This document shows, one piece after another, positions 33,240 through 53,245 of a stretch of DNA of 64,000 bases. Under the pieces are notes generated by a model. That model did not search any database. It saw only the letters and a program-made list of their open reading frames with translations, and was not told the DNA's origin. Numbering within the stretch: the first letter of the stretch is position 1; every line of letters starts with the position of its first letter. Position numbers and translations under genes: made by a program. The stretch is from a bacterium (GTDB lineage: Bacteria > Patescibacteriota > Minisyncoccia > Phycocordibacterales > UBA1006), in assembly GCA_037144045.1 (NCBI GenBank), contig JBAWXN010000003.1, positions 7,696 through 71,695 of the forward strand, given 5' to 3'.

Positions 33240-34136
33240 ATGAAAGGTCAAAACGACGTATCAAAACGACATGAAGAGGAAGGGTCTCAACCATTAAACG
33301 ACATTCGAAAAGAAGTCTTGTTTTATAATGATATTTTTACTAATCCTCTAGAAAAGTCTTTTTTTGTTTATTCTCGCAAGATCGAGAAGATTGTCACAGC
33401 GCTCTACCTGGTTACCGATGTTATGGATGGGGAACTGCCGTTGACTCGATCGCTAAGGTCCGAATCACTTGACCTCCTAAATGCGTGTTATCAAATTCTT
33501 ACTAGTACTGGAAAACTAGCACCCATTGAGATGACTCGAATATTGGTTCGACTCGAACACGTAACTTCACTTATTTCAATTGGAAGGATTGCACATCATA
33601 TTTCAGAAATGAATGCACAGGTCCTCATTGGGGAGCTCCAAAAAGTAACACACTTGATTGCCTTAGACACCCAAGAACTTACTCAGAAATACACTTCATA
33701 CCTCTACCCAAGAAATCATGGTGTCGAAACAGTTCAACCAGTCGTGTCACATGCAACTCTAGATGATGCCTCATTTGAAGAACTCGAGAAGACTAAAAAG
33801 CGACAAGGAGTTACAGGTAGACCAGTAAACGACATTAAAACGACATTAACGACATTCACATCAGAAGCTAAGAAATCAAGTGAACACAAAAAAGACATTG
33901 GTAATACTGTTGCAACAGTCAAAACGACATATAAAATAAGTGGAGGTGATCCTGATAGAAAACAGAGTATTCTCAACGTCATTAAATCGCATAAGAATGC
34001 ATCTATGCAGGACATTCAAAAGTTTGTTACTGGGTGCAGTGATAAGACACTCCAGCGTGAACTCGTGAGCCTCATTGCTTCTGGGCAGATTCGTAAGATA
34101 GGGGACAAGCGATGGGCAACGTATCATGTCGTTTAA
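33240..34136 (+). CDS. hypothetical protein with C-terminal winged-helix-like segment
   Basis: 298 aa. C-terminus SMQDIQKFVTGCSDKTLQRELVSLIASGQIRKIGDKRWATY resembles a wHTH. Confidence 0.4.
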   Translation: MKGQNDVSKRHEEEGSQPLNDIRKEVLFYNDIFTNPLEKSFFVYSRKIEKIVTALYLVTDVMDGELPLTRSLRSESLDLLNACYQILTSTGKLAPIEMTRILVRLEHVTSLISIGRIAHHISEMNAQVLIGELQKVTHLIALDTQELTQKYTSYLYPRNHGVETVQPVVSHATLDDASFEELEKTKKRQGVTGRPVNDIKTTLTTFTSEAKKSSEHKKDIGNTVATVKTTYKISGGDPDRKQSILNVIKSHKNASMQDIQKFVTGCSDKTLQRELVSLIASGQIRKIGDKRWATYHVV

Positions 34137-34162
34137 CCTCTCCCGGTCAGCTGCGCTGACCA

Positions 34163-34239
34163 CCCTCTCCTGATAAGGAGAGGGTCAGAGAAATCATGAT
34201 GTTTGGGAAAATTTTATCCTTCCCCTGATAAGGGGAGGG
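34163..34239 (+). repeat. pair of paralogous hairpins with identical TGATAA loops
   Basis: CCCTCTCC-TGATAA-GGAGAGGG (34163-34184) and CCTTCCCC-TGATAA-GGGGAGGG (34218-34239). Further hairpins flank them at 34145-34161, 34246-34262 and 34284-34316. Confidence 0.5.
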
Positions 34240-34818
34240 TGAATCCCGAAGGGGGACGGGAGGGGTATTTGACAAAAAGTCTAAAAATTACCTAATTTTT
34301 ATTAGGTAATTTTTTTGGTTGTGATTCGTCATCATTGATAGAAACAGAGTTGCGTGGATTTAAAGACACGCTATAATGTTTTCACTCCATAGAACATCAT
34401 AAATAAATGGGTGTGGATAAGTACTAATCTGCTTGCCTTGCCTAGCTCGTTTGTGGTACTATGGTTCCGTGCTTGTGAATTTGTAAGACGGTTCGTAATC
34501 GAGTTACAACATTCTCGGAATCATTCATTGTTAACTCAATAGACATTTTTTTATTTATTTTGTTAACAGCAAAATCTTTCTCGTCTTAACAGAACACACC
34601 ACTTATCTGTGTAGAATGCTATTCAAATAGTATTCTTCATATATATGTGGTGTGTTCTCACCGACGGGTGAGATACACTCCACATATTCTTTACAGAATA
34701 TTGTAGAGATAATAAACAGTACACAATATGGTCTACCACTTAATAAGTCGACGGTAGATCGTGTACGAATCTTTTCTGGCTTAATTACCAGAAAGGATAA
34801 TTGAAATTAATTTTAATT

Positions 34819-36717
34819 ATGCAAAAGAAATTTTTCGCAGTAGCTACATTTGCACTTGCTTTCGCAGTTGCATTTTCAGCTAGTGCATATGATCTCGGTT
34901 CAACAACATTGAAACGAGGATCAACAGGTGCAGCAGTTGTTGAACTCCAAAAAGCTTTGAACGAAAAGAACGGAGCTGGACTTGCAACTGATGGATCTTT
35001 CGGACGAGGAACAGAATCAGCAGTTAAAGCTTTCCAAGCTTCAAAAAACTTGGGAGCTGACGGTAAAGCTGGAGCGTTAACAAAGGCAGCTTTGAACGCT
35101 TCTACTTCTACTACAACTACTACAACATCAACAGCAGGACTTTGTCCAAACGGAATGACACTTGCATCAAACTGCACAATGTCTCCTTCAACATCATGGG
35201 GGTCTTCTTCTTCAGCAGAAGGATACCTAGCTGATATTGCTTCAGATTCATCAAACCTTGTTTCAACAGTTTACGAATCTGAACAAGACAAAGTTGTTAA
35301 CGGATTCCGTGCAACAGCTCGATTGGCAGACCAGAAGATTGAAAAAGTTACTGTAACATTGTTACAGACAAACGGATCAGCTTCAGTTAACCTTGCTAAA
35401 TACGCTTCAAGTGTTTCACTTTGGAACGGATCTACAAAGTTAGCAACTATGTCAGTTGCTAATGCAGACCGATCAACTTCAACAGATCTTTACACATTCA
35501 ACTTTACAGGATTGAGTTCAATCATTGCTAAAGATACAGCTGGACGATTCTACGTTTCAATCAATGCAAACGGAGCTCTCGATTCAGTTGATGCAACTAA
35601 CGCTACATGGGTTGGTAAAATCACAGAAGTTCGTGCAACATCTCCAAACGGTGTTTACGTAACAACAAATGGTTCACCATTCCCACTTTCTAAGACATTT
35701 GGATTTGGTAAGTTCTCAGCTAACGGAGTTAAGGCAGAAGTTGCACTTGCATCTTCAAACCCAACTTCACAAACTGTAACAGTTAGTGAAACATCTAACA
35801 CTAATGACAAAACTCTTTTGAAGTTCAAGATTACTGCTAAAAACACTTCTCTTACACTTCGAAAAGTTGGAATCAAGATCACTTCATCAGGAGCTGACCT
35901 TGAAGACATCATTAACACAGTTAAACTTTACCGAGACGCTACACAACTTGATAACAAATCAGGTGACGTAGTTGCGGCTTCAGCTATGGGGACATATGTA
36001 TTTGACAACCTTTCAGGAACATCAATTGCATCAGGTTCTTCAGCTGAATTCTCAGTTTCTGTAGATCTTAAGAAGCAAGTAGGAAACTACACTTCTGGAG
36101 TTGCGCTTACAGCTGAATTTACAGATTTGACAAGTACAAACTTCTCAGTTCAAGATGCTAACGGTGATCAACTACAAGCTGGATCAACATACCGATCTGG
36201 ATCAGCAGTTGGATCAGCTATGACTCTTCGAACAAAGGGAGTTTCAGCTACAGCTGGATCAGCTACAGCACCAGTTTCTTCTATTGGTAACTCTTCAACA
36301 CAACAAGTTACATTCTCATTCCCATTGAATTTGATTGGATCTGGTGTTGATTACTATGTTCCAAAAGCAGCTCAATTGGTGACTACTGGTGCATCTATGC
36401 CAGGATCTGCAACAGCTTCTAAGGGTATCTACTTTGCTATCCAGAACCTTACAAGTAACGCATTCCTTTCATCTGCAGCAGCTAACGTTGATTCATCAGC
36501 AACTGTTTATGGTACAAACCCAGAACAATTGCTAGCTTCAAACACTGGTACAAATGCAACATTGAAAGTTACAATCAACGGAAACGGAACAGCAGCTTAC
36601 TACAAGCTTTATGTTCTTGGATTCGCTGGAGCTGAATCTTTGAATGGAACATTGTCTACATACGCTGTTGACAATGCATCTGCATTCACAGTTACTTCAA
36701 ACGGAGCAGTTCAATAA
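34819..36717 (+). CDS. secreted cell-surface protein: signal peptide + peptidoglycan-binding domain + long Ser/Thr-rich beta region (candidate S-layer protein)
   Basis: Signal peptide MQKKFFAVATFALAFAVAFSASA|YD. The PG_binding_1-like repeat is LKRGSTGAAVVELQKALNEKNG...TDGSFGRGTESAVKAFQ. Poly-Thr linker. Codon usage is strikingly different from neighbouring genes (almost only A/T-ending codons gca/tca/aca/gtt/gct), typical of a very highly expressed gene. Confidence 0.6.
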   Translation: MQKKFFAVATFALAFAVAFSASAYDLGSTTLKRGSTGAAVVELQKALNEKNGAGLATDGSFGRGTESAVKAFQASKNLGADGKAGALTKAALNASTSTTTTTTSTAGLCPNGMTLASNCTMSPSTSWGSSSSAEGYLADIASDSSNLVSTVYESEQDKVVNGFRATARLADQKIEKVTVTLLQTNGSASVNLAKYASSVSLWNGSTKLATMSVANADRSTSTDLYTFNFTGLSSIIAKDTAGRFYVSINANGALDSVDATNATWVGKITEVRATSPNGVYVTTNGSPFPLSKTFGFGKFSANGVKAEVALASSNPTSQTVTVSETSNTNDKTLLKFKITAKNTSLTLRKVGIKITSSGADLEDIINTVKLYRDATQLDNKSGDVVAASAMGTYVFDNLSGTSIASGSSAEFSVSVDLKKQVGNYTSGVALTAEFTDLTSTNFSVQDANGDQLQAGSTYRSGSAVGSAMTLRTKGVSATAGSATAPVSSIGNSSTQQVTFSFPLNLIGSGVDYYVPKAAQLVTTGASMPGSATASKGIYFAIQNLTSNAFLSSAAANVDSSATVYGTNPEQLLASNTGTNATLKVTINGNGTAAYYKLYVLGFAGAESLNGTLSTYAVDNASAFTVTSNGAVQ

Positions 36718-36741: not shown

Positions 36742-36770
36742 CAAAAAACCCCGCAAGGGGTTTTTTGTTT
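36742..36770 (+). terminator. strong intrinsic terminator
   Basis: AAAAAACCCCGC-aa-GGGGTTTTTTGTTTTT. Confidence 0.8.
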
Positions 36771-36798
36771 TTCCAAATATTTTCTATATAATGCCTGT

Positions 36799-38898
36799 AT
36801 GGCACAACAAAAAATAACACAGAAATTGGATACGTCTTCGACGGTTTTAGAAAAAATAATACAGTGGGGAATGATAGTGATGCTGGCACTTATGCCGTTA
36901 CTGTATTCAAATGGGCGCATAGCATCAGCGGTGACCTCAAAACAGTTTTTTATAATAGGATGTATCGACTTATTGGTCATTGTTTGGGTATGGTTACTTA
37001 CTACTGATAGTCGGTATCGAATTACTGTTAAAAACGCGATATGGTTCATACCTGCGACGTTGTTTGTAAGTTCAATGACAGTAAGTACCTTTATAGGGGT
37101 TGATTTTTATACTTCATTTCTATCAACTATTGAACGAGGGGGTGGATTGTTGTTTATTTTGCACCTATATTTATTTGCACTTATGATCGCATCAGTGGTG
37201 CGAGCAAGGGGAATGGTGTTTATAAAATCATTGTTTCAGGCAATACTGTTCTCTGCGGTAGGTGTCGCAATACTCACTTTTTTCACCCGTGAAGCATTCG
37301 ATATCGGTGTTGAATGGCTCAATGAAAGTGTGGGAGGTGCAACACTAGGGAATTCAACTATTGCCGGTTCTTATTTTGTATTCGCATTATTCGGTGCATT
37401 ATTCCTGTGGATATCAGAAACTAAAGTATGGAAAAAAATACTCTATGGAATCGGTTTATTAATAATAGGAACATCACCAATAGTATTTAACGTTAAGGGT
37501 TTTTTCATAACAAAGACCGCTTGGGCAGAGGTATTCCACAACCCATTAGTAATCATTGGTCAGGCACGGGCAGCGGTAGTATCTATTATTATCGGTCTTA
37601 TTATTGCTGTATTGGTTTATATCGTTGCAACACATCAGAAGAAGATAGTGAAAGGATTAGCATTAGCAGGGGTTGTAGTAATCCTTCTTGGAATTGGTTA
37701 TTCAGGGTATCAGGTGTTACAGGACGGTTCACGTGTCCAACAGCTATTTATGGATAAAGTAGGTCAAAACCGTATTACTTTTTGGCACGAAGCGTTTGCA
37801 GGAATTCGCGAACGTCCATGGCTTGGATGGGGACCCGAAAACTTTAAAGTAGTACATCAAAAATATCTTGATCCAATCCTTGCAGGACCTGCTCGGAATG
37901 CAGAAATTTGGGTAGATAAACCCCATAATGCCCTTATTGAAACAGTAGTGACTCAAGGGTATATTGGACTTATTGCATACATTATTTTCATTAGTGCCTT
38001 ATTTACCTGTGTTGTACGGTTAATGTATCTACGGGTCCTTGAACCTAAATACGGCGCAGTTTTTATTGGATTGTTGACTGCTTATCTGTTGCAGAATCAA
38101 TTTGCATTTGACTCCATTATTTCACTGGTGTGTTTATGGTTACTGGTTGGTATCGTGTTAGGATATACTGATCAAACAGATACAAATCGAAAACCAATTG
38201 TTCCAGGTGTGATTATAAAAGGAATGGCTGCAATTATAACAGTGGCATGCATTGTGGTGTGGGTCTTTGCAGCGTATTTCCCATCACGAAAAATGATCGT
38301 CGCTAAAGAAGTATTTGATAGTCCTATGAATGTTCGACCCGAACAGTATGCTGATTTATTTACAGGACATGGGTCGTTGCAGTTTACTACTAATTTAGGA
38401 ATGATGGTGTATACCCTTGCAGAATCATATTTGGCACAGCGTGCGGTAATTATGCAAAGTCCTCAATTGGTTGATGCAGCTTCGCATGAGGTGGACATGC
38501 TCCTTGACGCAATGGATTCTGTTGACTCCTATTCAGGGAAAGATTATAGATTTAAGGCTGCAGCTGCGATTTTTCAAGAAACTCAAGTAGCTATTACCCA
38601 GAAACTGGACGCAAAGCGGGTAGAGCGTATGAATCGCTATGCACAGGAAGCAATTGCTCTTTCGCCGACAAATCCATTTGGGTACATGATATATAGTAAA
38701 ATATTACTCTATACTCAAAATATATCAGAAGCGCGAGTCATGATTGATAAGGCAATAGCTCTTAATCCTACGATTAAAGAGGCACATTTACAAAAAATTG
38801 CTTTTGAGCAAGCGTATGGTAATAGATCACAACAGCAGGCAGCAATTGCAGACCTTGCTCGATATTTTCCTGAAAGTGTAGACATGTATCGTAAATAA
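36799..38898 (+). CDS. O-antigen ligase/polymerase-like (Wzy_C) polytopic membrane protein with C-terminal TPR-like domain
   Basis: 699 aa, more than 10 TM. Wzy_C-type loop WVDKPHNALIETVVTQGYIGL. Soluble alpha-helical C-terminal repeats. -10 TATAAT lies 6 nt before the ATG. Confidence 0.7.
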   Translation: MAQQKITQKLDTSSTVLEKIIQWGMIVMLALMPLLYSNGRIASAVTSKQFFIIGCIDLLVIVWVWLLTTDSRYRITVKNAIWFIPATLFVSSMTVSTFIGVDFYTSFLSTIERGGGLLFILHLYLFALMIASVVRARGMVFIKSLFQAILFSAVGVAILTFFTREAFDIGVEWLNESVGGATLGNSTIAGSYFVFALFGALFLWISETKVWKKILYGIGLLIIGTSPIVFNVKGFFITKTAWAEVFHNPLVIIGQARAAVVSIIIGLIIAVLVYIVATHQKKIVKGLALAGVVVILLGIGYSGYQVLQDGSRVQQLFMDKVGQNRITFWHEAFAGIRERPWLGWGPENFKVVHQKYLDPILAGPARNAEIWVDKPHNALIETVVTQGYIGLIAYIIFISALFTCVVRLMYLRVLEPKYGAVFIGLLTAYLLQNQFAFDSIISLVCLWLLVGIVLGYTDQTDTNRKPIVPGVIIKGMAAIITVACIVVWVFAAYFPSRKMIVAKEVFDSPMNVRPEQYADLFTGHGSLQFTTNLGMMVYTLAESYLAQRAVIMQSPQLVDAASHEVDMLLDAMDSVDSYSGKDYRFKAAAAIFQETQVAITQKLDAKRVERMNRYAQEAIALSPTNPFGYMIYSKILLYTQNISEARVMIDKAIALNPTIKEAHLQKIAFEQAYGNRSQQQAAIADLARYFPESVDMYRK

Positions 38899-38902
38899 GG
38901 TA

Positions 38903-38928
38903 AAAACCTCGCGAAAGCGGGGTTTTTG
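38903..38928 (+). terminator. intrinsic terminator
   Basis: AACCTCGC-gaaa-GCGGGGTTTTTG. Confidence 0.55.
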
Positions 38929-38954
38929 TATGGTTGTTTGCTATACTGAATCAT

Positions 38955-40814
38955 ATGAAAGAACGAATTTTGAGATATGTTAGGTCAATTCCTCGTGCAA
39001 TCCTAGGGGGTATTATTGGCGCAACTATTTTAGGAAGTGTGTTATTTACTACCACAGGAATTGTTTATAACTATATCAATTCTAAGGTACTGTTCATTCA
39101 AATTGGGTGTACTCTTATTATCGCATTAGGAATACTTATTGTTTCTTGGAAAGACGTCTGGTTATTCATTAAAAAAACACCCCTAGTACAAGCAATGCTT
39201 GGTTTTTTAGGGGTAACAGTCGTTGCGACAATGCTTGGACTTGATCCGGCATTGTCGTTTTATGGGCACTTTGAACGAGGGACTGGGTTATTATTAACAC
39301 TTCTTACCATGATTGCTTCGTTGAGTGCGGTACTTATTACAAGTCGCTTTTCGTTAGTTCGACAGGCGATCTTATATCCGTTGGCATTAGCTGGAGGGCT
39401 TTTAGGTGTTACTACTTGGATAGGACTTACTGGCTTTAATATGCACTATTGGTATATCCTTGGTAAATCATCCGGGGGCGGGGGAACACTAGGAAATTCA
39501 TCATTTGCGGGAACAGTGTTCATGATGACGTTCTTCATTACATTATATTTATTTTGCACTGCTTCATCTCTTAAAAAGAGACTTGCATTGTTAGTTATAG
39601 GTTTCTTTACATTAGTTAATCCGGTCATAATTTCACTTTCGTATTTTAAACCTCTCGCTGGAACCGTATTTGGGTTTATTGGTGATGCTCGAGGCGCGAC
39701 TCTTTCGATAGTCCTTGGATTAATTGTGTTCATGAGCTTTTTAGCAACAACGAATCGGTACAAAGCAGTTCGTGTTGCTGGGTGGTCTACGATAGGGATT
39801 ACGATCGCAGGGATTTTGATTGGAATGGTGATGTTGGCAACACCAGGTAATAAGGTACACGATTTCTTTGTTAAAACATCTGGCGCAGCACGATTCATGT
39901 ACTGGAATATGGCGCTCAAGCAAACCAAAGACCATTTGTTTTTGGGTACAGGACCAGAAACATTTCGGTATGCTCATGAAAAATATTTCGATACACGACT
40001 ACTTGCGCTCGGTGAACCATGGGCAGATAAGCCCCATAATAGCTATGTTGAAATAGTGATGTCGCTTGGGGTGCTCGGTTTAGCAATGTATATCATTATG
40101 ATTGGAAGTATTATTTGGCTGGTACTTCAACTGCGTCATAATTCAAAGCATACTTTCTTCATTGCAACCGTGCTTGGTTTTTTAACGGCGTATTTGGTAA
40201 ACAATAGTATTTTGTTTGACACGATGACCAGTACGTTATTATTTTTCATGATATTGGCATGGATTGCTTGGTATTGGTACAACGCACAATCTTATGAAAA
40301 GACGGTGGATAATCGAGGAGTTGTAGAATGGGGAACACGTATTGTGTTGGTAATTTTAGTAATAGTTCCTCTGTATGGAATCATCCATGGTGAAGCTATT
40401 AAACTCAGCACGGTCTGGAAAGAACTGTTTACAGAACCTCCGGCACGCATGGAACTCTATCAAGCAGGAGAGCTCGCTTCGCCCTATGGTGCTGGAATTT
40501 CATTTGCACAACGCGCTGATGATTACGGACAACGATATATGACCAATACTAAAATCCCTAAAGATGTCGCAATTAAAGACATTGAAGCGATTAATGCGAC
40601 ACTTATTGATACCATGTCGAAATATCCCGCAAACACCCAAAGTTACATAGCGCTCGGTAATTTAGCACTTGCACACATTATCCAATCAGGTACTGCAAGT
40701 CCATTATGGATTCAAGAACTTAAACTTGCGGAACAAGGAGTGACGTTATTATCGCCACAAAATCCTCGCGCTGCTTATTTTAAACAACAGGTAACTTTGT
40801 ATGAAAAAAAATAG
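38955..40814 (+). CDS. O-antigen ligase-like (Wzy_C) membrane protein with C-terminal TPR-like domain, paralog of the upstream gene
   Basis: Same architecture, with WADKPHNSYVEIVMSLGVLGL loop motif. Start taken at ATG 38955, 7 nt after -10 TATACT. Confidence 0.7.
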   Translation: MKERILRYVRSIPRAILGGIIGATILGSVLFTTTGIVYNYINSKVLFIQIGCTLIIALGILIVSWKDVWLFIKKTPLVQAMLGFLGVTVVATMLGLDPALSFYGHFERGTGLLLTLLTMIASLSAVLITSRFSLVRQAILYPLALAGGLLGVTTWIGLTGFNMHYWYILGKSSGGGGTLGNSSFAGTVFMMTFFITLYLFCTASSLKKRLALLVIGFFTLVNPVIISLSYFKPLAGTVFGFIGDARGATLSIVLGLIVFMSFLATTNRYKAVRVAGWSTIGITIAGILIGMVMLATPGNKVHDFFVKTSGAARFMYWNMALKQTKDHLFLGTGPETFRYAHEKYFDTRLLALGEPWADKPHNSYVEIVMSLGVLGLAMYIIMIGSIIWLVLQLRHNSKHTFFIATVLGFLTAYLVNNSILFDTMTSTLLFFMILAWIAWYWYNAQSYEKTVDNRGVVEWGTRIVLVILVIVPLYGIIHGEAIKLSTVWKELFTEPPARMELYQAGELASPYGAGISFAQRADDYGQRYMTNTKIPKDVAIKDIEAINATLIDTMSKYPANTQSYIALGNLALAHIIQSGTASPLWIQELKLAEQGVTLLSPQNPRAAYFKQQVTLYEKK

Positions 40815-41628
40815 TTCAACGGTAAGTGTTATTATTCCAACTTATAATTCTGCTGCAACCCTCATGCGGGCTCTTGATAGTGTACTCGGTCAAACCTATA
40901 AACCACTTGAAATAATTGTCGTAGATGACGGTTCCACTGATGACACTAAAAAAATCTTAGAGTCATACATAAGTAATAGTTCTATTACTTATGTATATCA
41001 ACAGAATGCTGGTTGTGGGCGTGCGCGAAATAATGGAATAACTTTGGCTCAAGGGGAATATATTGCACTCCTCGACGCCGATGATTTTTGGCATACTGAA
41101 AAGCTCGCTCGACAGATTGAAGTATTTAAAAATCATCCAGACACATTAGTGTGTTATACAGAAAGCTATATTGTGGATCCGTATCATAAGATTATTTGGG
41201 ATTTAGTACGAACGATTCGTACACGGCCAAGGTCAGGATGGATTGCAAAATATTTTGTTATTAACAATATGGTACTTCCTTCAAGTACTCTTATTCCTAA
41301 AAGTGCCTTGATTGCCGTAGGGGGATTTTGTGAACAGTATAATTTGATGATGGTGGCTGATCTTGATATGTGGCTGAAATTAGCTTCTCGTGGGAAGTTT
41401 TACGCATGTAATACGCCGCTTACGTTTTATCAAACACGAGCACGTATTACCCAGGCTCAAATTAAAGAAAACCATCGTCAAGTACGAGAAGTGTTCAAGA
41501 GGGCGTTAATTCACGAATCATGGTCAGTGAAAGGATGGTATTTCCTTGGTTATGTAAAATCTTGGCTATTGTATCTAGTTCAGTCAATTAAGCTCGTGAA
41601 CACAATTAAGCAAAAAATGATAAAATAA
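40801..41628 (+). CDS. family 2 glycosyltransferase
   Basis: VSVIIPTYNSAATL...IIVVDDGSTDDT...LDADD, the GT-A DxD signature. Confidence 0.85.
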   Translation: MKKNSSTVSVIIPTYNSAATLMRALDSVLGQTYKPLEIIVVDDGSTDDTKKILESYISNSSITYVYQQNAGCGRARNNGITLAQGEYIALLDADDFWHTEKLARQIEVFKNHPDTLVCYTESYIVDPYHKIIWDLVRTIRTRPRSGWIAKYFVINNMVLPSSTLIPKSALIAVGGFCEQYNLMMVADLDMWLKLASRGKFYACNTPLTFYQTRARITQAQIKENHRQVREVFKRALIHESWSVKGWYFLGYVKSWLLYLVQSIKLVNTIKQKMIK

Positions 41629-41632
41629 AACC

Positions 41633-42721
41633 ATGATTACTGTTACGATACTTACCACAACTCATGCATCAACAGGTGGCGTAGAGCGCTTTGTAAGCTA
41701 TTTGGAAAAAGAGCTTATTTTGCATGAATGTGCAGTGACCATAATTGCAAAACAAGATTTACGTCCTTGGCAACAGAAAATAATTGGACTCGCAAAATAT
41801 GTAGCAAGTGATCAAATAGTACTAGGGTATTTTTTAGGGTGTGTAGCTATGCGAGGTACTAGTGATGTAGTTATTACTAATGGACTCCTCGGGTGGAATA
41901 TTCGTAATAAAAAAGTTATTAATGTTCATCATGGTACGTTTATCAAAGGTGCGCTGCGTACTCGACACGACGATGTATGGATTAAATACATTATTAAACG
42001 TTACTGGTGGTCGTGGTTTGAGCAAAAAGCGGCTCGTGGTGCAACGGTATGTGCTGCAGTTTCAGAAGAAACACGACAGTCAGTGATGCACTATTACCGC
42101 GCAAAAAACGTGGTTACTATTCCTAATGCTATCGATACCGATTTATTTGTGCCCAACACTCAAGAAGTGGCACGAAAAAGTTTAGGACTTCCATTAGATA
42201 AGAAAATAGTGTTCTTCGCGAGCCGTCTTGGATCGCAGAAAGCAGGGCAATTAGTACTGGCAATTGCTCAGCATATTAAAAAAACACGTCCTAATGTAAT
42301 AGTAGTAGGTGCAGTATTTGGACAACAGTTTTCACAAGAATCAGGTATTATTGGGCTCGATAATGGTTCGTATGATCGATTGGTGATGGCGTATAATGCG
42401 GCAGATGTATTTTTGCTTCCATCACGCCATGAAGGATCGTCGCTTGCACTGCTTGAATCAATGGCATGTGGACTACCTTTTTTAGCAAGTCCTGTCGGGT
42501 TAGTACCAGAACTCCTTGAGAAAAAATTATTTACCGAATGTATTGTGAGTGAACCAACTGTTGATGCTTATATGAATCATTTGAATAAACTCCTTGGGTT
42601 GTCGACTGACGATCAAATAATACTTGCACAACAACTCCGAACATATGTGGTTGAACATCATAATTTACAGCAGTTCGGAAATAATTATTTTTCACTCATT
42701 AAAACTATTACATCACTATGA
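41633..42721 (+). CDS. family 4 (GT-B) glycosyltransferase
   Basis: C-terminal LLPSRHEGSSLALLESMACGLPFLASPVG, the GT4 EX7E-type motif. Confidence 0.8.
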   Translation: MITVTILTTTHASTGGVERFVSYLEKELILHECAVTIIAKQDLRPWQQKIIGLAKYVASDQIVLGYFLGCVAMRGTSDVVITNGLLGWNIRNKKVINVHHGTFIKGALRTRHDDVWIKYIIKRYWWSWFEQKAARGATVCAAVSEETRQSVMHYYRAKNVVTIPNAIDTDLFVPNTQEVARKSLGLPLDKKIVFFASRLGSQKAGQLVLAIAQHIKKTRPNVIVVGAVFGQQFSQESGIIGLDNGSYDRLVMAYNAADVFLLPSRHEGSSLALLESMACGLPFLASPVGLVPELLEKKLFTECIVSEPTVDAYMNHLNKLLGLSTDDQIILAQQLRTYVVEHHNLQQFGNNYFSLIKTITSL

Positions 42722-43602
42722 TTGACGTTATTATGCCAACTTATAATCGCGCACAAGCCCTTACGAAAGTAATGGATTCTTACCTGTCGCAAGATTTCCT
42801 TGGGAAAATTATTTTCGTAGATGATTGCAGTACGGATACCACTACAGAATATGTGGCAGGACTTGCACAACAATATCCTGGTAAAATTGTGTATCATCGC
42901 ATGGATAAAAAATCTACATTACCTAATATTCGTAATGTAGGTATTCACCTTGCGACCAACGATTATATTTTTATGGGCGAAGACGACGTGTATTTACCTG
43001 AAGGTCATTTTAAAATCCTTCTTGAAAAAATGAATGAATACCAGGCTGACCTTATTTCAGGACGACGGGTAAACATGTTTGCGGATCAAGACCAAGTGCT
43101 GGCTAAAAAACTGGCAGACTTGGATCATCGTCCGGTGTTTGTAAACGTTCCATTCGAGGCATATTTTGAACGAGTAGTTGATAAGGCTCAATCAGTAAAT
43201 CGATTGCATTCAAATATGCTCATGAAACGCTCAGTATTCGATAAAGTACAATACGATCCGTGGTATGGAGGAAACGCATTTCGAGAAGAAACAGACTTTT
43301 TTCTACGAGTCTGGGATGCTGGATTCACACTGTGGCTTATTCCAGATACCTTGTCATATCATATGAAAAACACTGCAGTAAACCAGACTGGGGGATCACG
43401 AAAAAAACGATGGGTCTACGAATGGCAAGTTTGGAAAAACACTGCGCATTTATTTATAAAAAACAAAAAAATATTTACTGAAAAATTACATTCGGGCAAT
43501 ATTTATTGGTATTTAGTACGTTGTTTAATTGCTCGATATACCTACGGACTTTTTAGATTTATTGAACAACAGATTCATAGAAAAAAATATGCACAAACGT
43601 AA
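42718..43602 (+). CDS. family 2 glycosyltransferase
   Basis: IDVIMPTYNRAQAL...IIFVDDCSTDTT...GEDD. ATGA overlap with the upstream gene. Confidence 0.8.
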   Translation: MIDVIMPTYNRAQALTKVMDSYLSQDFLGKIIFVDDCSTDTTTEYVAGLAQQYPGKIVYHRMDKKSTLPNIRNVGIHLATNDYIFMGEDDVYLPEGHFKILLEKMNEYQADLISGRRVNMFADQDQVLAKKLADLDHRPVFVNVPFEAYFERVVDKAQSVNRLHSNMLMKRSVFDKVQYDPWYGGNAFREETDFFLRVWDAGFTLWLIPDTLSYHMKNTAVNQTGGSRKKRWVYEWQVWKNTAHLFIKNKKIFTEKLHSGNIYWYLVRCLIARYTYGLFRFIEQQIHRKKYAQT

Positions 43603-44809
43603 AGTACTTGTCGCGTTGTTCCGGTTGCCGTATCCAGCAACTGATGGAACACGATTTAAAATTCTCCATAACCTCGTATCAGGCCTTAAAAAAGAATTTG
43701 AGGTGGAGTTTTTTGTGGTGAATATTAAATCGTACACCCAATCTGATATTGACCATTTGGAGCAAAATTATGGAAAGGTGCACGTGTTCCATAGATCGAA
43801 ATTAGCGTATCTGTTTAATGCGTTTCCTGCGCTATACAACGGATTACCGCTTCAGGCCCAAGCGTTTCACTTTAAGGGTGCACAAAAATGGCTTGATGTG
43901 CATATTGACGATTATGATGCGGTATATATTCACGAGATTCGTATGACTGAATTTTTTATTAATTATTCAGATGTACAGAAGCAGAAATTCTTGGTTGATT
44001 TCAACGACGCTATTTCTATGAACTATCAAGCAGGAGTTCAGAAAATGAATGTCTTTAAAAAGTTATTTTATACCTGGGAAGGGAATCGGGTTGCGCGCTA
44101 TGAATCACAAGTGCTTACCACGTTTAACCATTTCAGTATTGTTTCGGAGGTAGATAAAAAATATCTACTCAATGCGCCAGCGTATCATGGTTCTAAAAAT
44201 CTTGATTTTTCAGTAGTAAATCACGGAGCTCCTATTCCGAGCGAGGTTGCAACCTGTGACCAACATAAAATATTTTTTATGGGTAGTTTGGATTACGAAC
44301 CAAATCGTGATGCGGTGCGCTACTTGATTGAAACTATCTGGCCTCAACTGAGTGTAAAAATTCCTGAAGTAGAACTCGTTATTATTGGTGGGGGAACTAT
44401 TCCTGAATCGTATAAGCATATTCCAAGAATTATTTTTTCTGGATTCGTACCCAATGTCTTCGAAGTGGTGCGTCATTGTAAAGCGTTGGTTGCCCCTATT
44501 CGATTTGCGGGAGGGACTCCTTCAAAAATTATTGAAGCAATGGGGTATGGTATTCCAGTAGTAACAACACCACAAGGCGCCGCGGGTATTTCTGGAATCG
44601 AACCAGGCAACAACATTATTACTGTTTCAGAACAGGATGTGGATGCTTGGGTAGAAATCATTAACAAATTAATACAGGATTCGAACTATTTGAATGCTAT
44701 TGCTCGCAAGGGGAGACTATTAGTAGAAGAACGGTATTCCCAGCAAGCCGCCGAACAAGTATTCTGTAATCGCTTAAAAGAAGTCGCTGACAGTATTCAT
44801 ACTCTATAA
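43589..44809 (+). CDS. family 4 (GT-B) glycosyltransferase
   Basis: GGTPSKIIEAMGYGIPVVTTPQGAAGI C-terminal nucleotide-sugar binding motif. Start taken at ATG 43589 (MHKRKVLV), overlapping the upstream stop. Confidence 0.8.
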   Translation: MHKRKVLVALFRLPYPATDGTRFKILHNLVSGLKKEFEVEFFVVNIKSYTQSDIDHLEQNYGKVHVFHRSKLAYLFNAFPALYNGLPLQAQAFHFKGAQKWLDVHIDDYDAVYIHEIRMTEFFINYSDVQKQKFLVDFNDAISMNYQAGVQKMNVFKKLFYTWEGNRVARYESQVLTTFNHFSIVSEVDKKYLLNAPAYHGSKNLDFSVVNHGAPIPSEVATCDQHKIFFMGSLDYEPNRDAVRYLIETIWPQLSVKIPEVELVIIGGGTIPESYKHIPRIIFSGFVPNVFEVVRHCKALVAPIRFAGGTPSKIIEAMGYGIPVVTTPQGAAGISGIEPGNNIITVSEQDVDAWVEIINKLIQDSNYLNAIARKGRLLVEERYSQQAAEQVFCNRLKEVADSIHTL

Positions 44810-44814
44810 CTAAT

Positions 44815-45495
44815 ATGGAATTCCTCACTCAAACAAAACAATATATCCGTAATCAGTTTCCAAGTCTTTTTACTGTTTTAAAAAAGCTGCGTAATGTTCC
44901 TGGGTTGGCGCACATGAATGCATTAGCGTCACCGATTACGGAACGATTTGATGCTTCAAAAGAAGACGATGCGTATTTTAAAAAATACATGGATGAAGTA
45001 ATTCGTACTATTAATTCATTACCGCATGCAGGTGAACTGCTTGATATTGGGTGCGGCCATGGATTCGCAACACAGATGCTCGCGGAACTGCCTCGAGTTA
45101 CTAACGTGGTTGCACTGGATAAAGTACCGCGTGATTACTTTCACTATCTCGATAATCCAAAAATTACTTTTTATTCAGAAGACATTACTTCATTCGATTT
45201 TTCACCATGGGTAGATCGCTTTGATGCGGTCGTGAGTACAGAATTTGTTGAACATATTTCTGAACATGATGGGGAAGTGTTAGTACAAAACGTGTTTAAG
45301 GTAGTAAAACCAGGAGGATATTTTATTGGTTCTACACCGCTTAATCCGACTCAAGATAATCTCTTTACTCATAATCCATTTCATATTCGTGAATATCAGC
45401 CAAGTGTATTCAAGAAAATACTTGAACAGGTTGGATTTCGCACTATTGTAATTAAGGAGCTTGGTGATTGTTTTGTTTGGATAGCACAAAAATAA
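44815..45495 (+). CDS. class I SAM-dependent methyltransferase
   Basis: Motif I LLDIGCGHGFAT and motif II-like VVKPGGYFIGSTP. Confidence 0.8.
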   Translation: MEFLTQTKQYIRNQFPSLFTVLKKLRNVPGLAHMNALASPITERFDASKEDDAYFKKYMDEVIRTINSLPHAGELLDIGCGHGFATQMLAELPRVTNVVALDKVPRDYFHYLDNPKITFYSEDITSFDFSPWVDRFDAVVSTEFVEHISEHDGEVLVQNVFKVVKPGGYFIGSTPLNPTQDNLFTHNPFHIREYQPSVFKKILEQVGFRTIVIKELGDCFVWIAQK

Positions 45496-45503
45496 TCGTA
45501 TAT

Positions 45504-45532
45504 ACAAAATCGCCCTACGGGGCGACTTTGTA
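45504..45532. terminator. bidirectional intrinsic terminator
   Basis: AAAATCGCCC-tac-GGGGCGACTTT between convergent genes. Confidence 0.55.
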
Positions 45533-46801
45533 TTAATTACGAAATAGATGGTTTCGTAATTTGAATCCAGTAATTAAGGTAATAGTGGTGAGTCCAACAA
45601 CACTTGCAATAGCGGCGCCAACACCTTGGTAATGAGGAATCAAGAGTACGTCAAGTGCAATATTTACGACAACGCCTACAATGTTTGCGATAACAAATTG
45701 TTTTTGTTTGTCGAGCGCGAGAACGACGTTGTTGAGAATACTCAAGATAAATACAGGAATATAAGACAGTGCAAGAATGGTCAGAATAGGTGCGCCTACT
45801 ACGAATGAATAACCAAAAAGAATATTCATGATCGGTACTGACCCAAGAATCATAATGGTCATCAATGGAACCGCTAGAACCAACATGAGTATGAGCGATT
45901 TTCTAATAGCGCTCATGATATCTGATTGGTCTTGTGTTTTTTGTACGAGTGTCGGGAAGGTACTTGTTGCAAATAGTGATGCAAGAATATAAAACATTTG
46001 AACAATACGACTCGCAGCAGCATAGAGTCCCACATCAGTAGTGGTTCCGTAATATCCTAAAAATAAGGTATCAGTATTAAAAATGAGTACGTTTGATATT
46101 GCAAGTACGGTAAACGGCCATGCAGCAAAGAATATTTCGTTGAGCAGTTTTCGAGAAAACGTTTTACGAATATTGGGAAGGTAGTTACGAATAACAAAAA
46201 ACATAATACTCGTCCCGATAAAGCTCCCTAATGCATATCCCCAAGCTAGTGAAAGTGGGGTAGGTGATACCATCATAAAGCTAATCCCAAAAATTACTAT
46301 CAAGGTATTGGTAATAATTTGGACTTTCGCGTCGACATGCATACGTTGTTCAGCACGGGTAATAGAGAAGAAGAGCGCGCGCAGTGCATCACAAAACATA
46401 AGGAACGCAATTACGGGAATGATGACTCGTGACGCAGGAATAGTGCTTACCAATGGGCCAATACCAATAAAAAATAGTAATGCAACAACACCGAGTATTA
46501 TTTTTAATACGAGTGCGGTTCCAAAAATAATATGTTTATCGTGTTCATTTTTTGCAAAGCTACGGGTTACAAATGTGGCAATACCTGCGTCTTCAAAAAA
46601 AGTAAGGAATCCTCCAAGTGCGATGGCGTAACTAAAAACCCCAAGTCCGGAAACGCCGAGCATGCGGGCTGCAACAATTCCAAGACCTCCACGCGCGATG
46701 CGGCTTCCTATTTCAGCAAGAGACAGCCAAATAGTGTTACGGAGTATAGTTTTTTTGGTGGTACTCACGTTTGAGAGAAATTCTCGAGTCTTTTGAATCA
46801 T
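45533..46801 (-). CDS. Wzx-type polysaccharide/oligosaccharide flippase (MOP superfamily)
   Basis: About 12-14 TM helices, length ~420 aa, organisation typical of Wzx. Start set at the internal ATG (MIQKTREF), since the ORF track begins with an upstream TTG. Confidence 0.7.
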   Translation of the reverse strand: MIQKTREFLSNVSTTKKTILRNTIWLSLAEIGSRIARGGLGIVAARMLGVSGLGVFSYAIALGGFLTFFEDAGIATFVTRSFAKNEHDKHIIFGTALVLKIILGVVALLFFIGIGPLVSTIPASRVIIPVIAFLMFCDALRALFFSITRAEQRMHVDAKVQIITNTLIVIFGISFMMVSPTPLSLAWGYALGSFIGTSIMFFVIRNYLPNIRKTFSRKLLNEIFFAAWPFTVLAISNVLIFNTDTLFLGYYGTTTDVGLYAAASRIVQMFYILASLFATSTFPTLVQKTQDQSDIMSAIRKSLILMLVLAVPLMTIMILGSVPIMNILFGYSFVVGAPILTILALSYIPVFILSILNNVVLALDKQKQFVIANIVGVVVNIALDVLLIPHYQGVGAAIASVVGLTTITLITGFKLRNHLFRN

Positions 46802-46922
46802 ATGATGTATTGTACTTATTTTACGTATATTTTCCAAGGAATTATTTATAGTTACTTGAATAGTTCTTATATATTTCTTGAGGGCTCATTTGGTTTACTA
46901 GGGGAAACTAAAAATAAAATAT

Positions 46923-49383: not shown

Positions 49384-49878
49384 ATGCTCTTTTTTCAACC
49401 AAAACCAGTTGTGGCCCATTCAGAATGGAAGCTGTGGCGAACGATTATTCTGGGTCAGCACGCAAATAATCAGGCATTATTTAATGCATTACGTAAATCA
49501 GGGTACGCAAACTACTTGTGGACCGATGATATTATAAGCAAGTTACAAGTAGTACCTGAGCCTCGCACAAAAGAACTATTCTTGGTGAGGCCTCGTGATT
49601 TAGGAATTACGTACGGGTGTGATTATCCTGATTTTCGCACTGAAGCAGTGCGGGCCGGTTTTAAAATGGTGCCGACAGAAACAGTGGGGCAGTTGCGCCT
49701 TGATTACAATGATCAGCCGCTTGATGAGCGCATTCATATGGGTACGGTGACATTTCCTTTTAAAGGAAGACAACGAGCTATTTTTTGTTTAGTTCATACT
49801 AATCAAGGGAAGCAGATTGTAATCCGTGAGCCAGGTGAATACTATCAACCTGATGAAAAGTTTGTATTTTGTAGATAA
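49384..49878 (+). CDS. hypothetical protein
   Basis: 164-aa ORF with no recognisable motif. Confidence 0.45.
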   Translation: MLFFQPKPVVAHSEWKLWRTIILGQHANNQALFNALRKSGYANYLWTDDIISKLQVVPEPRTKELFLVRPRDLGITYGCDYPDFRTEAVRAGFKMVPTETVGQLRLDYNDQPLDERIHMGTVTFPFKGRQRAIFCLVHTNQGKQIVIREPGEYYQPDEKFVFCR

Positions 49879-50021: not shown

Positions 50022-50708
50022 ATGTTAGCTGTTCAACAAGGACAAGTATTTCTCGGAGTACTTCAATCATTCTGGGTGGGACTCTACAGTTTCCTTCCAA
50101 GTGTGATCCTCGCAATTATTCTCTTCATTATTGGTGTAGTTATTGCCGGATTCATCGGAAAGGCTATTGCTCATGTTATTAATTTGACTAAAGTAAACGG
50201 TCTCCTTGATCGAACTGCTTTAAAAGAAATTGTTAACAAGGCAGGATTTCATTTGAATATTGGTGGACTTATTGGATGGTTGGTACAATGGTTATTAATC
50301 CTTGCTTTCTTGGTAGGGGCATTGAACCTCCTCGGGTTATCAGATGTTAATGTGTTCTTGCAACAAATTGTATTGTTCTACTTGCCACGAGTAATCGTAG
50401 CAGTACTTATTGTTGTTGTAGGTTCAGTATTAGCAGAAGCTGCTTCAAAAGCAGTTACTGGATCAGCAAAAGTTGCAAATGTATCATCAGCAAACCTTGC
50501 TGGATCAATTGCAAAATGGGCTATCTGGATTACTACTATCCTCTTTGGACTTAATCAATTGGGAATTGGAGCTGACCTTATCCAAACTCTTTGGATGGGA
50601 ATTGTAGTTGCACTTGCACTTGCGATTGGGCTTTCATTTGGATTGGGAGGTAAAGACCATGCTTCAAAAGTACTTGATAAAGTATCTGACATGATCTCAC
50701 ACCGATAA
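50022..50708 (+). CDS. hypothetical polytopic membrane protein (TM-helix repeat type)
   Basis: 228 aa, about 5 hydrophobic helices with internally repeated pattern. Confidence 0.5.
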   Translation: MLAVQQGQVFLGVLQSFWVGLYSFLPSVILAIILFIIGVVIAGFIGKAIAHVINLTKVNGLLDRTALKEIVNKAGFHLNIGGLIGWLVQWLLILAFLVGALNLLGLSDVNVFLQQIVLFYLPRVIVAVLIVVVGSVLAEAASKAVTGSAKVANVSSANLAGSIAKWAIWITTILFGLNQLGIGADLIQTLWMGIVVALALAIGLSFGLGGKDHASKVLDKVSDMISHR

Positions 50709-50845: not shown

Positions 50846-51550
50846 ATGTTTAATCTTGATAAAGCAAAGAAAAACTTAAAGAACACGGTTATGGCAACGG
50901 TTACAGCTGTCACTATGGCTGCTCCAGCATTTGGTGCGGAAAGTAAGGCTGCACCAATTAAAGACGAAGCAAAAATTGAAGCCACTGCACAAACCCCAGA
51001 AGAGATAGAAGCTGCAAAAATGGAGAAGGCGCGCTTGGAAAAAATAGCAAACCTTGAAGCAAAAGTTGCACAGTTAAACGCACATATGGCAAAAATTCAA
51101 GACCATATGGAAAAAGTTCAAGATGATTTCGACGCTGCTCTTTCACAAGCAATTGCGTTTAATGGAGGTAAGCATCTTTCAAAGCTTGATCTTGGCTCAG
51201 TAGGAGACACTGCAATATCAATGGCTCGACTTCAAGTTGGAAAACATAATTTGATGAATGATAACGCACTGAATGGTCTTTCAGGAGTACTTCTTTCAGG
51301 AGAAGGCCGATTCGGAAAACAGATGAAAGATTTACTTAAGGTTCAAAATGGCCAAATTGGTTCAACAGTTGCAATGAATGGAGAAAAAATGTCTCCTGAT
51401 CTTGCACTCCGTCAAAAGATCGGTGCTGACCCACGGATAATTATTCAAGATGCGCTTGAATTTGCTACAGTTGAACATCAGAAAAACCTAGCACAACAAG
51501 AACTTGATAAACTCATGCAAGACGTTACTGGATTAATTGCTTCGAACTAA
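50846..51550 (+). CDS. secreted coiled-coil hypothetical protein
   Basis: Signal peptide MATVTAVTMAAPAFGAES, followed by heptad-rich EAKIEATAQ...KARLEKIANLEAKVAQLNAHMAKIQDHMEKVQDD. Confidence 0.45.
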   Translation: MFNLDKAKKNLKNTVMATVTAVTMAAPAFGAESKAAPIKDEAKIEATAQTPEEIEAAKMEKARLEKIANLEAKVAQLNAHMAKIQDHMEKVQDDFDAALSQAIAFNGGKHLSKLDLGSVGDTAISMARLQVGKHNLMNDNALNGLSGVLLSGEGRFGKQMKDLLKVQNGQIGSTVAMNGEKMSPDLALRQKIGADPRIIIQDALEFATVEHQKNLAQQELDKLMQDVTGLIASN

Positions 51551-51684: not shown

Positions 51685-52589
51685 CCCCTCGTCTCACAAA
51701 TTTTCTACCTTCTTGGTCTGATCAAATGTGGGAGACAGATCATTGTCAACTTCATGCGTTGCCCGAAGCATTTATTGAGGTATTTTTTCTCTATGAAAAT
51801 TTAGAAAAAATATTTACGTTATCCCGCTTCGGAGCACGATTGAGAAATAATACAGGCGAATTTTGCACAAGTGCAGAATTCAAGTATTTTTTACCAAGCA
51901 AATAAAAGAACAGTTCTAAAAAAAATTTAGAACAACCCGCCTCATCGGCGGGTGAAAAAGTCTCCGCCGGAAAGGCGGAGCAAAATAAAAAGTCCTTTCT
52001 ATAATGGTTATAGAAAGGCGAACACACAAAGATGTGTTTACTTGTGATTTTTAGATTTCCTAATAGGAGTCTAAGGGCGTAGTAGTGGATGCCTTGGTTC
52101 ATGGAAGCGATGAAGGACGCGACAGCCTGCGATAAGGTTCGGGGAGCTGGCAATAAGCTTTGATCCGGACATTTCCGAATGAGGAAACTCATTGGGGGTT
52201 ATACCCCAATATCTGACAGCTGTCAGATGCTAACCTAGGGAAGTGAAACATCTCAGTACCTAGAGGAATAGAAAACAATAGTTATTTCCTGAGTAGCGGC
52301 GAGCGAAACGGAAGGAGCCCAAACCAAGTTGATCGCGTAGTGTTTGATAGATTTATTTATCGAAACCTACGCGATACATTTGGGGTTATAAGACGAGAAC
52401 GTCATTTAGTTGAGAAGAGTTACAAATTCATGTGTTAGATTAAGTATCTGGGAAGATACGGCATAGAGGGTGATACCCCCTTGATCGAAAACGCTATGAA
52501 CTCTTTTGTTCACGCTCTTGAGTACTTCGAGACACGAATAGCTCGGAGGAATTTGCCGGAACTAACCGGTAAGGCTAAATATTCCATGA

Positions 52590-52635
<46 letters not shown>

Positions 52636-53213: not shown

Positions 53214-53245
<32 letters not shown>

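Follow-up and report, generated by a model that had tools for sequence, protein, structure and literature searches.

A candidate S-layer subunit gene with a peptidoglycan-binding anchor in a patescibacterium of the class Paceibacteria

The Patescibacteria, or candidate phyla radiation (CPR), represent a large share of bacterial diversity and are almost entirely uncultured, and it is their cell envelope that mediates an episymbiotic life. A surface (S-) layer has been seen in Patescibacteria by cryo-electron microscopy (cryo-EM), but we know of no subunit that has been confirmed biochemically. The current study concerns an open reading frame (ORF) at nt 34819–36717 of a 64,000 nt stretch of DNA (contig JBAWXN010000003.1 of assembly GCA_037144045.1, positions 7,696–71,695; the whole stretch is referred to below as the window). 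This gene probably encodes such a subunit in a Paceibacteria-class patescibacterium, anchored to peptidoglycan via a PG_binding_1 domain, with the lattice itself being predicted.

In Ca. Nealsonbacteria, cryo-EM revealed 'an apparent S-layer' (10.1101/2022.04.20.488981). The supplement of a 2024 preprint (10.1101/2024.05.28.596244) gives two predicted types of Patescibacteria S-layer protein, carrying either six immunoglobulin (Ig)-like domains (1131–1274 aa) or three. The three-domain type includes UMX47672.1 of Nealsonbacteria DGGOD1a (727 aa), GMX57981.1 of Yanofskybacteria (692 aa) and A0A1G2QP48 of Vogelbacteria (643 aa), and it models as a p6 lattice of 13.5 nm, near the 13 nm lattice seen by cryo-EM. 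Those authors chose the 692-aa protein because, of the five signal-peptide genes with the highest expression in a metatranscriptome, its gene was the largest. It is very probably the product of PMX_810_sub_00350, as length and expression rank match; this gene of 2,079 nt encodes a signal peptide, reached expression values of 16.7/15.9 (log units) compared to about 8–12 for its neighbours, and was assigned a peptidoglycan-binding domain and interpreted as a host-attachment factor (PMC10936435). The preprint likens Patescibacteria S-layer proteins to csg of Haloferax volcanii, a chain of Ig-like domains that forms a p6 'hexagonal spiral pyramid' (10.1101/2024.05.28.596244). More generally, S-layer genes combine biased codons, efficient and often tandem promoters, and long 5' untranslated regions (UTRs) whose structure lengthens the half-life of the mRNA (PMC3666127). 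S-layer structural genes are monocistronic and, in Geobacillus, lie beside a glycosylation cluster (sgsE included), and the putative S-layer O-transferases WsaB and WsfB are Wzy_C proteins, with a TPR motif occurring in WsfB and PglL (PMC2943079).

The gene under study reads from an ATG at nt 34819 to a stop codon at nt 36715–36717 (+) and specifies a product of 632 aa, identical to NCBI entry MEI8224062.1, which derives from a metagenome-assembled genome (MAG). A TTG in the same frame at nt 34801 does not stay in frame in relatives. A signal peptide, a PG_binding_1 domain and a disordered Thr/Ser linker are followed by three large beta-sandwich domains, as listed here with the per-residue confidence (pLDDT) of an AlphaFold2 (AF2) model:

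34819..34887, +, Sec signal peptide, aa 1–23 (n/h/c regions by eye in the translation; pLDDT <50 for aa 1–21)
34906..35103, +, PG_binding_1 three-helix domain, aa 30–95, the cell-wall anchor (Pfam, PDB profile; pLDDT >90)
35104..35208, +, disordered Thr/Ser-rich linker, aa 96–130 (T 28%, S 22%; pLDDT <50 for aa 99–124)
35209..35724, +, beta-sandwich D1, aa 131–302 (pLDDT about 90–96, 11 strands; the most conserved part in the family)
35725..36264, +, beta-sandwich D2, aa 303–482 (AF2 model; homologous to D1)
36265..36717, +, beta-sandwich D3, aa 483–632, plus the stop codon (hypervariable; pLDDT about 90)

Each part of the layout proposed in an initial annotation (signal peptide, peptidoglycan-binding domain of PG_binding_1 type, poly-Thr linker and about 500 aa of beta sequence rich in Ser, Thr, Asn and Ala) was recovered. 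The signal peptide, MQKKFF-AVATFALAFAVAF-SASA|YD, has the n, h and c regions typical of Sec substrates and a predicted ASA|YD cleavage site, both read by eye from the sequence, and the protein is accordingly of the secreted kind expected of an S-layer subunit. Attachment to the envelope is indicated by PG_binding_1 at aa 36–92 (Pfam, E 1e-12; 48.5 bits, cutoff 23), the profile of which matches the solved peptidoglycan-binding domains of 1lbu, endolysins and SleB in a PDB profile search; the mature N-terminal segment (aa 25–98) is basic, with an isoelectric point (pI) of 9.6. The linker includes STSTTTTTTST and is a candidate O-glycosylation and wall-spanning segment. It also carries a 12-residue motif with two cysteines, CPNG(M/N)T(L/I)ASNC (nt 35155–35190, aa 113–124), present in the window protein as a CPNGMTLASNC mini-loop; the Cys pair belongs to the family consensus, the motif is duplicated in the homologue at locus L009, and it may form a small disulfide loop.

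The remainder of the protein is all-beta (aa 131–632: S 13.7, A 12.4, T 12.0 and N 7.2%, with zero His and zero Cys). The AF2 monomer model, built from 59 homologues, has an overall pLDDT of 87 and folds some 500 aa into three all-beta blocks, each of 11–13 strands, so that the structure prediction suggested by the initial annotation returned three beta-sandwich domains. D1 and D2 are homologous to one another (hhalign probability 96%, E 2e-9), and no significant similarity of D3 to D1 or D2 was detected by hhalign. In keeping with the S-layer reading, Foldseek matches to the model in the PDB were limited to tandem Ig-like surface proteins, with an archaeal S-layer among them. The composition is S-layer-like (mature protein: His 0, Cys 2, Ser+Thr+Ala 39%; pI of the weakly acidic beta, or assembly, region 5.7). 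Neither Pfam, NCBIfam nor the PDB profile search identified a catalytic domain in the 632-aa protein. An SLH domain is likewise absent, PG_binding_1 being the sole Pfam match at E <= 0.1, and the C-terminus (...SAFTVTSNGAVQ) has no LPXTG-type sorting signal or hydrophobic tail.

Codon usage sets the gene apart from the rest of the window. Its G+C content at third codon positions (GC3) is 0.22, i.e. 78% of codons end in A or T, compared to 0.31 expected from the amino-acid content, a deviation (z = -5.0) that is the most extreme among 53 ORFs in the window. In four-fold degenerate families, 9 of 398 codons end in G or C, against 13–43% in other genes. The initial annotation was right in describing a compositional outlier, but its description of nearly all codons as A/T-ending is imprecise, since C is favoured in the two-fold pyrimidine families (AAC 81%, TAC 74%, TTC 65%; 65% overall vs about 30%). 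Depletion of G/C in four-fold families together with a preference for C in NAY-type codons is a classical signature of translational selection. When the codon adaptation index (CAI) was computed against the ribosomal-protein genes of the window (L10 + L7/L12 + S6), a check that the initial annotation had recommended, the gene scored 0.760 and ranked first of 54 ORFs (z = +3.1), exceeding the ribosomal-protein genes themselves. The genes nearest to it in codon usage are those of L7/L12, L10, SSB, S6 and EF-P, besides one membrane-protein gene. The pattern extends across the family. At all 17 loci compared, four-fold G/C use in the homologue is lower than in its neighbours (2–15% vs 17–47% at 16 loci; 48% vs 55% at the GC-richer L015), and the two-fold C preference is above that of the neighbours in nearly all 17. 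The rank of the CAI, the ribosomal-like bias and the family-wide pattern are codon proxies from which a high abundance of the coat protein is predicted.

A further line of support is that the gene behaves as a core gene, occupying one locus in fixed synteny across a large family. Its homologues carry the names Paceibacteria, Nomurabacteria, Minisyncoccia or Patescibacteria. An exhaustive profile search gave 3,860 representatives of 50%-identity clusters at E <= 1e-30, a count that takes in some PG_binding-repeat proteins that are not family members; the best 150 are mostly single full-length matches of about 540–800 aa. A scan of a genome collection with a 17-sequence alignment gave 12 loci only, at 40–46% identity. 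The order is the same wherever there is upstream flank (17 loci): RecA, a small ORF and FtsK (all -), then a winged helix-turn-helix (wHTH) protein of 263–317 aa (+), a spacer, and the coat gene. The spacer measures 440–730 nt in 14 of 15 loci. Among distant members, identity is 48% in D1, 44% in PG_binding_1, 41% in D2 and 15% in D3, a gradient that fits an inner lattice and an exposed tip; D3 is probably outward-facing.

Taken together, a secreted, peptidoglycan-binding and non-catalytic product, the top codon adaptation of the window, the gene's own promoter region and terminator, and an adjacent glycan locus (the last three described below) support the S-layer or surface-protein reading of the initial annotation, to which we attach moderate confidence as regards a lattice, itself a prediction. 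Several points weigh against it. Tandem Ig-like domains with a wall anchor are also a description of adhesins, and host attachment was the role given to the highly expressed protein by the authors who measured it (PMC10936435). The link to GMX57981.1, UMX47672.1 and A0A1G2QP48 is one of shared architecture, size and lineage; word-index homology searches, the exhaustive HMM search and cluster look-ups returned neither a published S-layer accession nor an informative name. A six-domain S-layer gene may lie elsewhere in the genome, as the view here is of 64 kb. Classical S-layer proteins are acidic, but this one, taken over its full mature length, has a mildly basic pI of 8.2. A Wzy_C neighbour is missing in 8 of 21 loci and, for this organism, the S-layer lattice, abundance and surface localisation are predictions from sequence.

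The principal rival is an abundant wall-anchored adhesin that forms no lattice, in which PG_binding_1 would hold the protein on the organism's own wall or on that of a bacterial host, and the variable C-terminal domain would bind the host in an episymbiotic or parasitic lifestyle. The authors of the metatranscriptome study interpret proteins with peptidoglycan-binding domains in this way (PMC10936435), a hypervariable D3 is what would be expected of a host-recognition tip, and a Foldseek search of the PDB returned tandem Ig-like surface modules alone (PrgB, integrin legs, pilins, MSCRAMMs), the best matches being Ig-like modules of adhesins, pilins and MSCRAMMs (e.g. PrgB, SspB, ClfB, BcpA) and an archaeal S-layer appearing at rank 50. 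An adhesin, however, is rarely the single most codon-adapted gene, above the ribosomal-protein genes, nor is it often present in one copy at a core locus whose synteny is fixed throughout a class; the protein also lacks a sortase (LPXTG) signal. Archaea lacking murein were the hosts in the expression study, and PG_binding_1 would therefore most simply bind the cell's own wall. We consider an adhesin without a lattice unlikely, while noting that the two roles are not exclusive, as S-layers often mediate adhesion.

Less likely still is a major non-crystalline cell-wall glycoprotein, i.e. a 'fuzzy coat' or sheath matrix, heavily O-glycosylated, that would shield the wall without ordered self-assembly. 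The Thr/Ser-rich disordered linker, the Ser+Thr content of 26% overall, and the Wzx/Wzy-type glycan locus adjoining the gene would suit such a protein, but all three domains are conserved and modelled as well folded (pLDDT about 90), a p6 lattice that agrees with the observed 13 nm spacing came out of published models of three-Ig-domain proteins of this size, and the glycan locus is not adjacent at every locus. From sequence, an abundant adhesin or a non-crystalline wall glycoprotein would look similar to an S-layer subunit. That the product is a peptidoglycan hydrolase or another wall-remodelling enzyme is very improbable. Some homologues bear the automatic name 'peptidoglycan hydrolase-like protein', and NCBIfam models of SleB and peptidoglycan hydrolases match below threshold, but these matches are limited to aa 29–118, with scores (41 and 30 bits) far under the respective cutoffs (236 and 500). 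Taken with the PDB profiles, the family-profile matches (SleB, endolysin and DD-carboxypeptidase binding modules) are confined to aa 29–130 and fall far below the family cutoffs; the PDB profile search matches nothing past aa 150, and the other 500 aa are beta-sandwich without a catalytic family. Homology to a non-structural enzyme, which the initial annotation had named as grounds for abandoning its proposal, was thus not found, as matches to enzyme families cover the binding module only.

The intergenic spacer in front of the gene is 682 nt long and contains the following features:

34138..34262, +, three clustered GC-rich hairpins, immediately 3' of the upstream gene's stop codon (-66.4 kcal/mol, z -6.0)
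34283..34316, +, 14-bp A/T-flanked hairpin AAAAATTACCTAAT...ATTAGGTAATTTTT followed by a T-run (-12.7 kcal/mol, z -4.45)
34350..34377, +, candidate promoter P1: TTGCGT (34350–34355), 16-nt spacer, TATAAT (34372–34377), by eye
34384..34818, +, long, structured 5' leader; a transcript from P1 would have about 435 nt of it and one from P2 about 350 nt
34412..34420, -, DnaA-box-like 9-mer TTATCCACA, perfect, 12 nt upstream of the P2 -35
34433..34462, +, candidate promoter P2: TTGCCT, 18-nt spacer, TG-n-TACTAT (extended -10), by eye

Where the initial annotation had seen a 680-nt non-coding leader, the spacer is indeed without a conserved ORF (none of its small ORFs keeps frame and extent across 7 relatives), but the leader proper is likely about 350–435 nt, the rest consisting of hairpins, the terminator of the upstream gene and promoters. 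Covariation supports its structure, and its transcription with the gene is predicted. The leader is more strongly conserved than the coding sequence (CDS): DNA identity to three relatives with proteins 85/83/65% identical is 94/92/82% in the leader, 90/88/71% in the CDS and 77/67/58% in the next gene. In an alignment of 7 sequences, from loci whose proteins are 61–85% identical to the window protein, the leader structure comprises 110 pairs, with 96.5% of cells paired as opposed to 38–47% when the partners were slid. Compensatory changes occur in 20 of the pairs, compared to 3–6 after sliding and 6.6 +/- 1.9 after shuffling, and 0 of 500 shuffles attained 20. They are concentrated at nt 34591–34658 (where the tip varies in length), 34719–34766 and 34769–34798, the covarying helices being 34591–34611/34638–34658 (with a variable apical insert), 34719–34724/34761–34766, 34730–34737/34753–34760 and 34769–34778/34789–34798. 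An invariant A/U hairpin (34799–34818) abuts the AUG.

No Rfam match occurs in the spacer, either at gathering thresholds or at E <= 1, and a 27-nt leader pattern had zero matches in JGI metagenomes. Neither the leader (nhmmer) nor a covariance model of its 3' 141 nt found a match upstream of homologues at 40–46% protein identity, and therefore this RNA is specific to the clade whose proteins share at least about 60% identity. In a second clade the conserved spacer blocks are different, and the loci at 40–46% identity have equally long spacers with blocks of their own. If the leader is part of a control module, as tentatively proposed below, the long spacers across the family would suggest that each lineage has its own version. 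AAGGA at nt 34793–34797 was considered and rejected as a Shine-Dalgarno sequence, as it lies 21 nt from the AUG, within the 3' arm of a covarying helix, and is replaced in L020, and also because most genes of the window have no such sequence. Almost no Shine-Dalgarno sequence was present in the 30 nt upstream of 53 ORFs of the window, and many of these have a TATAAT/TATACT/TATAGT-like box about 5–12 nt before the ATG (e.g. 36786–36791), which suggests that leaderless or near-leaderless mRNAs would dominate in this organism. A long leader is exceptional in this genome, because most genes have the -10-like box near the ATG and no Shine-Dalgarno sequence.

Both hexamers of P1 are invariant in all 6 relatives that cover it; the -35 agrees with the consensus at 3 of 6 positions, which is why P1 is absent from a consensus promoter scan. 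A palindrome, GCGTG-N10-CACGC, lies between its -35 and -10 (34352–34371). At P2, the block GGTACTATGGTTCCGTGCTTGTG is invariant in the 7 aligned leaders save for one G-to-A change in L003. A search of the 64 kb with TTATNCACA gave a single match, the site at 34412–34420. A perfect copy of the TTATCCACA 9-mer is present in the upstream spacer of 18 of 21 loci (including L004–L015, L017 and L018), and loci with the TTATCCACA orientation typically have it about 12–16 nt upstream of a TTGCAT-like -35, which is followed by TATAAT. L009 also has TTATCCACA at about 8107 and about 10119, in front of the rplJ-rplL operon promoter and of the promoter of a small membrane-channel-like gene. In Paceibacteria, the element may serve strong promoters as an activator site or an UP-like element. 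A replication origin at this site was rejected, as there is one box alone, the window has no GC-skew turn, and the motif precedes other promoters in relatives.

The upstream part of the spacer is less uniform. The hairpins at 34138–34262 can be aligned with the closest relative, L001, alone; L019 and L003 bear different GC-rich palindromes there. GC-rich palindromes of the type CCCTCTCC-loop-GGAGAGGG occur 3' of the upstream gene, and in L018–L020 related GC-rich hairpins are inserted at the variable tip of the long leader helix (equivalent to 34612–34637). In this genome, otherwise 40% GC, they could be mobile palindromes of small size; inside the 64-kb window they do not form a repeat family. 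The hairpin at 34283–34316 is kept in every sequence that reaches it, its loop-proximal pairs co-vary (AAT/ATT, ATT/AAT, AGT/ACT), and it is a probable bidirectional intrinsic terminator of the upstream gene. Just ahead of it, ATTTGACA (34267–34274) is conserved in all 5 relatives that reach it, with no acceptable -10 at 16–18 nt after it.

The genes on either side, and the terminator of the coat gene, are as follows:

33240..34136, +, upstream neighbour, conserved; cytoplasmic protein of 298 aa (four-helix bundle at the N-terminus, then a disordered linker and, at the C-terminus, a winged helix)
36742..36767, +, intrinsic terminator CAAAAAACCCCGCAAGGGGTTTTTTG with a T-run (11-bp stem, -17.1 kcal/mol, z -3.9)
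36799..40814, +, two paralogous Wzy_C membrane proteins of 699 and 626 aa (Wzy_C E 2.5e-15 and 4.2e-16)
40801..46837, both strands, rest of the glycan-assembly locus: GT2, GT4, GT2-like ORF, GT1 and methyltransferase (+), Wzx-type flippase (-) (Pfam)

At each of the 17 loci with sufficient flank, the winged-helix neighbour immediately precedes the coat gene in the same orientation; it has no Pfam or NCBIfam match. In its AF2 model (pLDDT 73.5), aa 36–155 resemble bundles of the Avd/23S-IVS type (TMt 0.8) and aa 238–297 resemble the winged helices of MecI/BlaI/HxlR (TMt about 0.45, 23–25% identity), the E-values of these structural matches being weak (0.02–0.2). The protein is a candidate DNA-binding regulator, which may regulate the coat gene. 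It is possible, though the proposal is a tentative one, that the leader, beyond any stabilising role, is a new cis-regulatory RNA and that, with the TTATCCACA element and this neighbour, it forms a dedicated control module for coat synthesis, which might act by feedback from unassembled subunit or from a wall or glycan precursor. Such a module would work in organisms in which the remaining mRNAs seem to be largely leaderless and devoid of Shine-Dalgarno sequences.

Downstream, the terminator at 36742–36767 ends a monocistronic unit, and the next gene has its own TATAAT (36786–36791) 7 nt before its ATG. The terminator had been ranked among the strongest of the window; it is a good one, but about five other sites with a hairpin and T-run fold equally well or better. 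The glycan-assembly locus noted earlier beside the gene was borne out, with two Wzy_C proteins, three glycosyltransferases that Pfam recognises (a GT2 and two of GT1/GT4 type), a GT2-like ORF (42718–43602, judged by an N-terminal sequence motif alone), a methyltransferase and a Wzx-type flippase. Wzy_C-type genes, at least three glycosyltransferases and a flippase directly downstream are what is expected of an S-layer glycoprotein locus. A Wzy_C gene is directly downstream in 13 of 21 loci, window included. The first Wzy_C protein has a weak TPR-like C-terminus (matches below threshold, E 0.004), and the pair are candidates for a glycan polymerase and an O-oligosaccharyltransferase.

Farther along, the rRNA genes occupy 52061–55989 (+), comprising 23S (2,722 nt aligned to a 2,925-nt model), a tRNA (55111–55181) and, about 700 nt beyond the tRNA, 5S (55883–55989); a 16S gene is absent from the window. 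Two small genes shortly before the 23S gene, 50022–50708 (+) and 50846–51550 (+), also have elevated codon adaptation, with CAI ranks 4 and 11 of 54. One encodes a membrane protein of 228 aa that has TM-helix repeats of the mechanosensitive-channel kind, the other a 234-aa protein with an N-terminal hydrophobic stretch and no family match. The sequence TTATCTACA occurs near them, with one mismatch, at 49870–49878.

If the gene does encode an S-layer subunit, the following scheme can be proposed. After export and cleavage of the signal peptide, the protein would be retained on the peptidoglycan of its own cell through non-covalent binding by PG_binding_1. The linker would cross the wall and be O-glycosylated by the neighbouring Wzy_C-type transferase, with a glycan built by the adjacent glycosyltransferase and Wzx genes. 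The conserved D1–D2 would make the lattice contacts, and the hypervariable D3 would face outward. Very high output would come from the tandem promoters with their upstream TTATCCACA element, from translationally optimal codons and from the long structured 5' leader, which would stabilise the mRNA as in Lactobacillus slpA and possibly regulate it.

The locus is a well-delimited candidate for an S-layer with a peptidoglycan-binding anchor instead of SLH, a likely glycosylation partner and a hypervariable outer domain. Codon adaptation, fixed synteny and a long leader are markers available from genomes only, and could pick out the coat gene in thousands of MAGs. The conserved leader and promoter element offer entry points to gene regulation in a phylum where almost nothing is known of it. 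The cited published work on Patescibacteria S-layer proteins makes no mention of the leader, the TTATCCACA promoter element, the conserved wHTH neighbour or the adjacency of Wzy_C, and the cited literature likewise does not mention the family-wide codon and spacer signature. The leader, the TTATCCACA element, the wHTH neighbour and the codon/spacer signature are modest additions to the known picture.

In comparison with known systems, the protein differs from PG_binding_1 hydrolases (SleB, endolysins, DD-carboxypeptidases), in which a catalytic domain stands beside the module, and from sortase-anchored adhesins and pilins (MSCRAMM-like), which have an LPXTG signal and hydrophobic tail. It also differs from the SLH-anchored S-layer proteins of Firmicutes, Deinococcota and Cyanobacteria in having no SLH domain. 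The csg protein is archaeal, with a C-terminal lipid anchor and six domains, whereas here there is an N-terminal peptidoglycan anchor and three domains. The SlpA genes of Lactobacillus are alike in their biased codons, two tandem promoters, long structured 5' UTR, and wall-binding and self-assembly modules (PMC3666127), but here the leader is about 350–435 nt with at least five covarying helices, the anchor is PG_binding_1 rather than a SLAP or teichoic-acid-binding module, and there is no sequence homology. The genes for SgsE and SgtA of Geobacillus stearothermophilus and G. tepidamans share a monocistronic organisation with an own terminator beside a glycan locus (PMC2943079), and the Geobacillus slg clusters share a Wzy_C-type putative O-oligosaccharyltransferase and glycosyltransferases; a Gram-positive-type envelope is a further likeness. 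There is no sequence relationship to the Geobacillus proteins, the glycan route there is of the ABC-transporter type as opposed to Wzx/Wzy here, and the Geobacillus proteins are glycoproteins; glycosylation here is a prediction. The closest likeness is to the three-Ig-domain proteins of Patescibacteria. These have lattice models, and the window protein is likened to them by architecture, not sequence: the phylum, the size (632 aa vs about 640–730, with a range of about 580–800 aa in the family of the window protein) and the three beta-sandwich domains agree. The Yanofskybacteria member also has a signal peptide and an N-terminal peptidoglycan-binding domain (PMC10936435), features documented for that member only; its high expression was measured, and the window gene has extreme codon adaptation. 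By architecture, size, lineage and expression signature, the protein would thus appear to belong to the kind already predicted in the 2024 preprint (10.1101/2024.05.28.596244).

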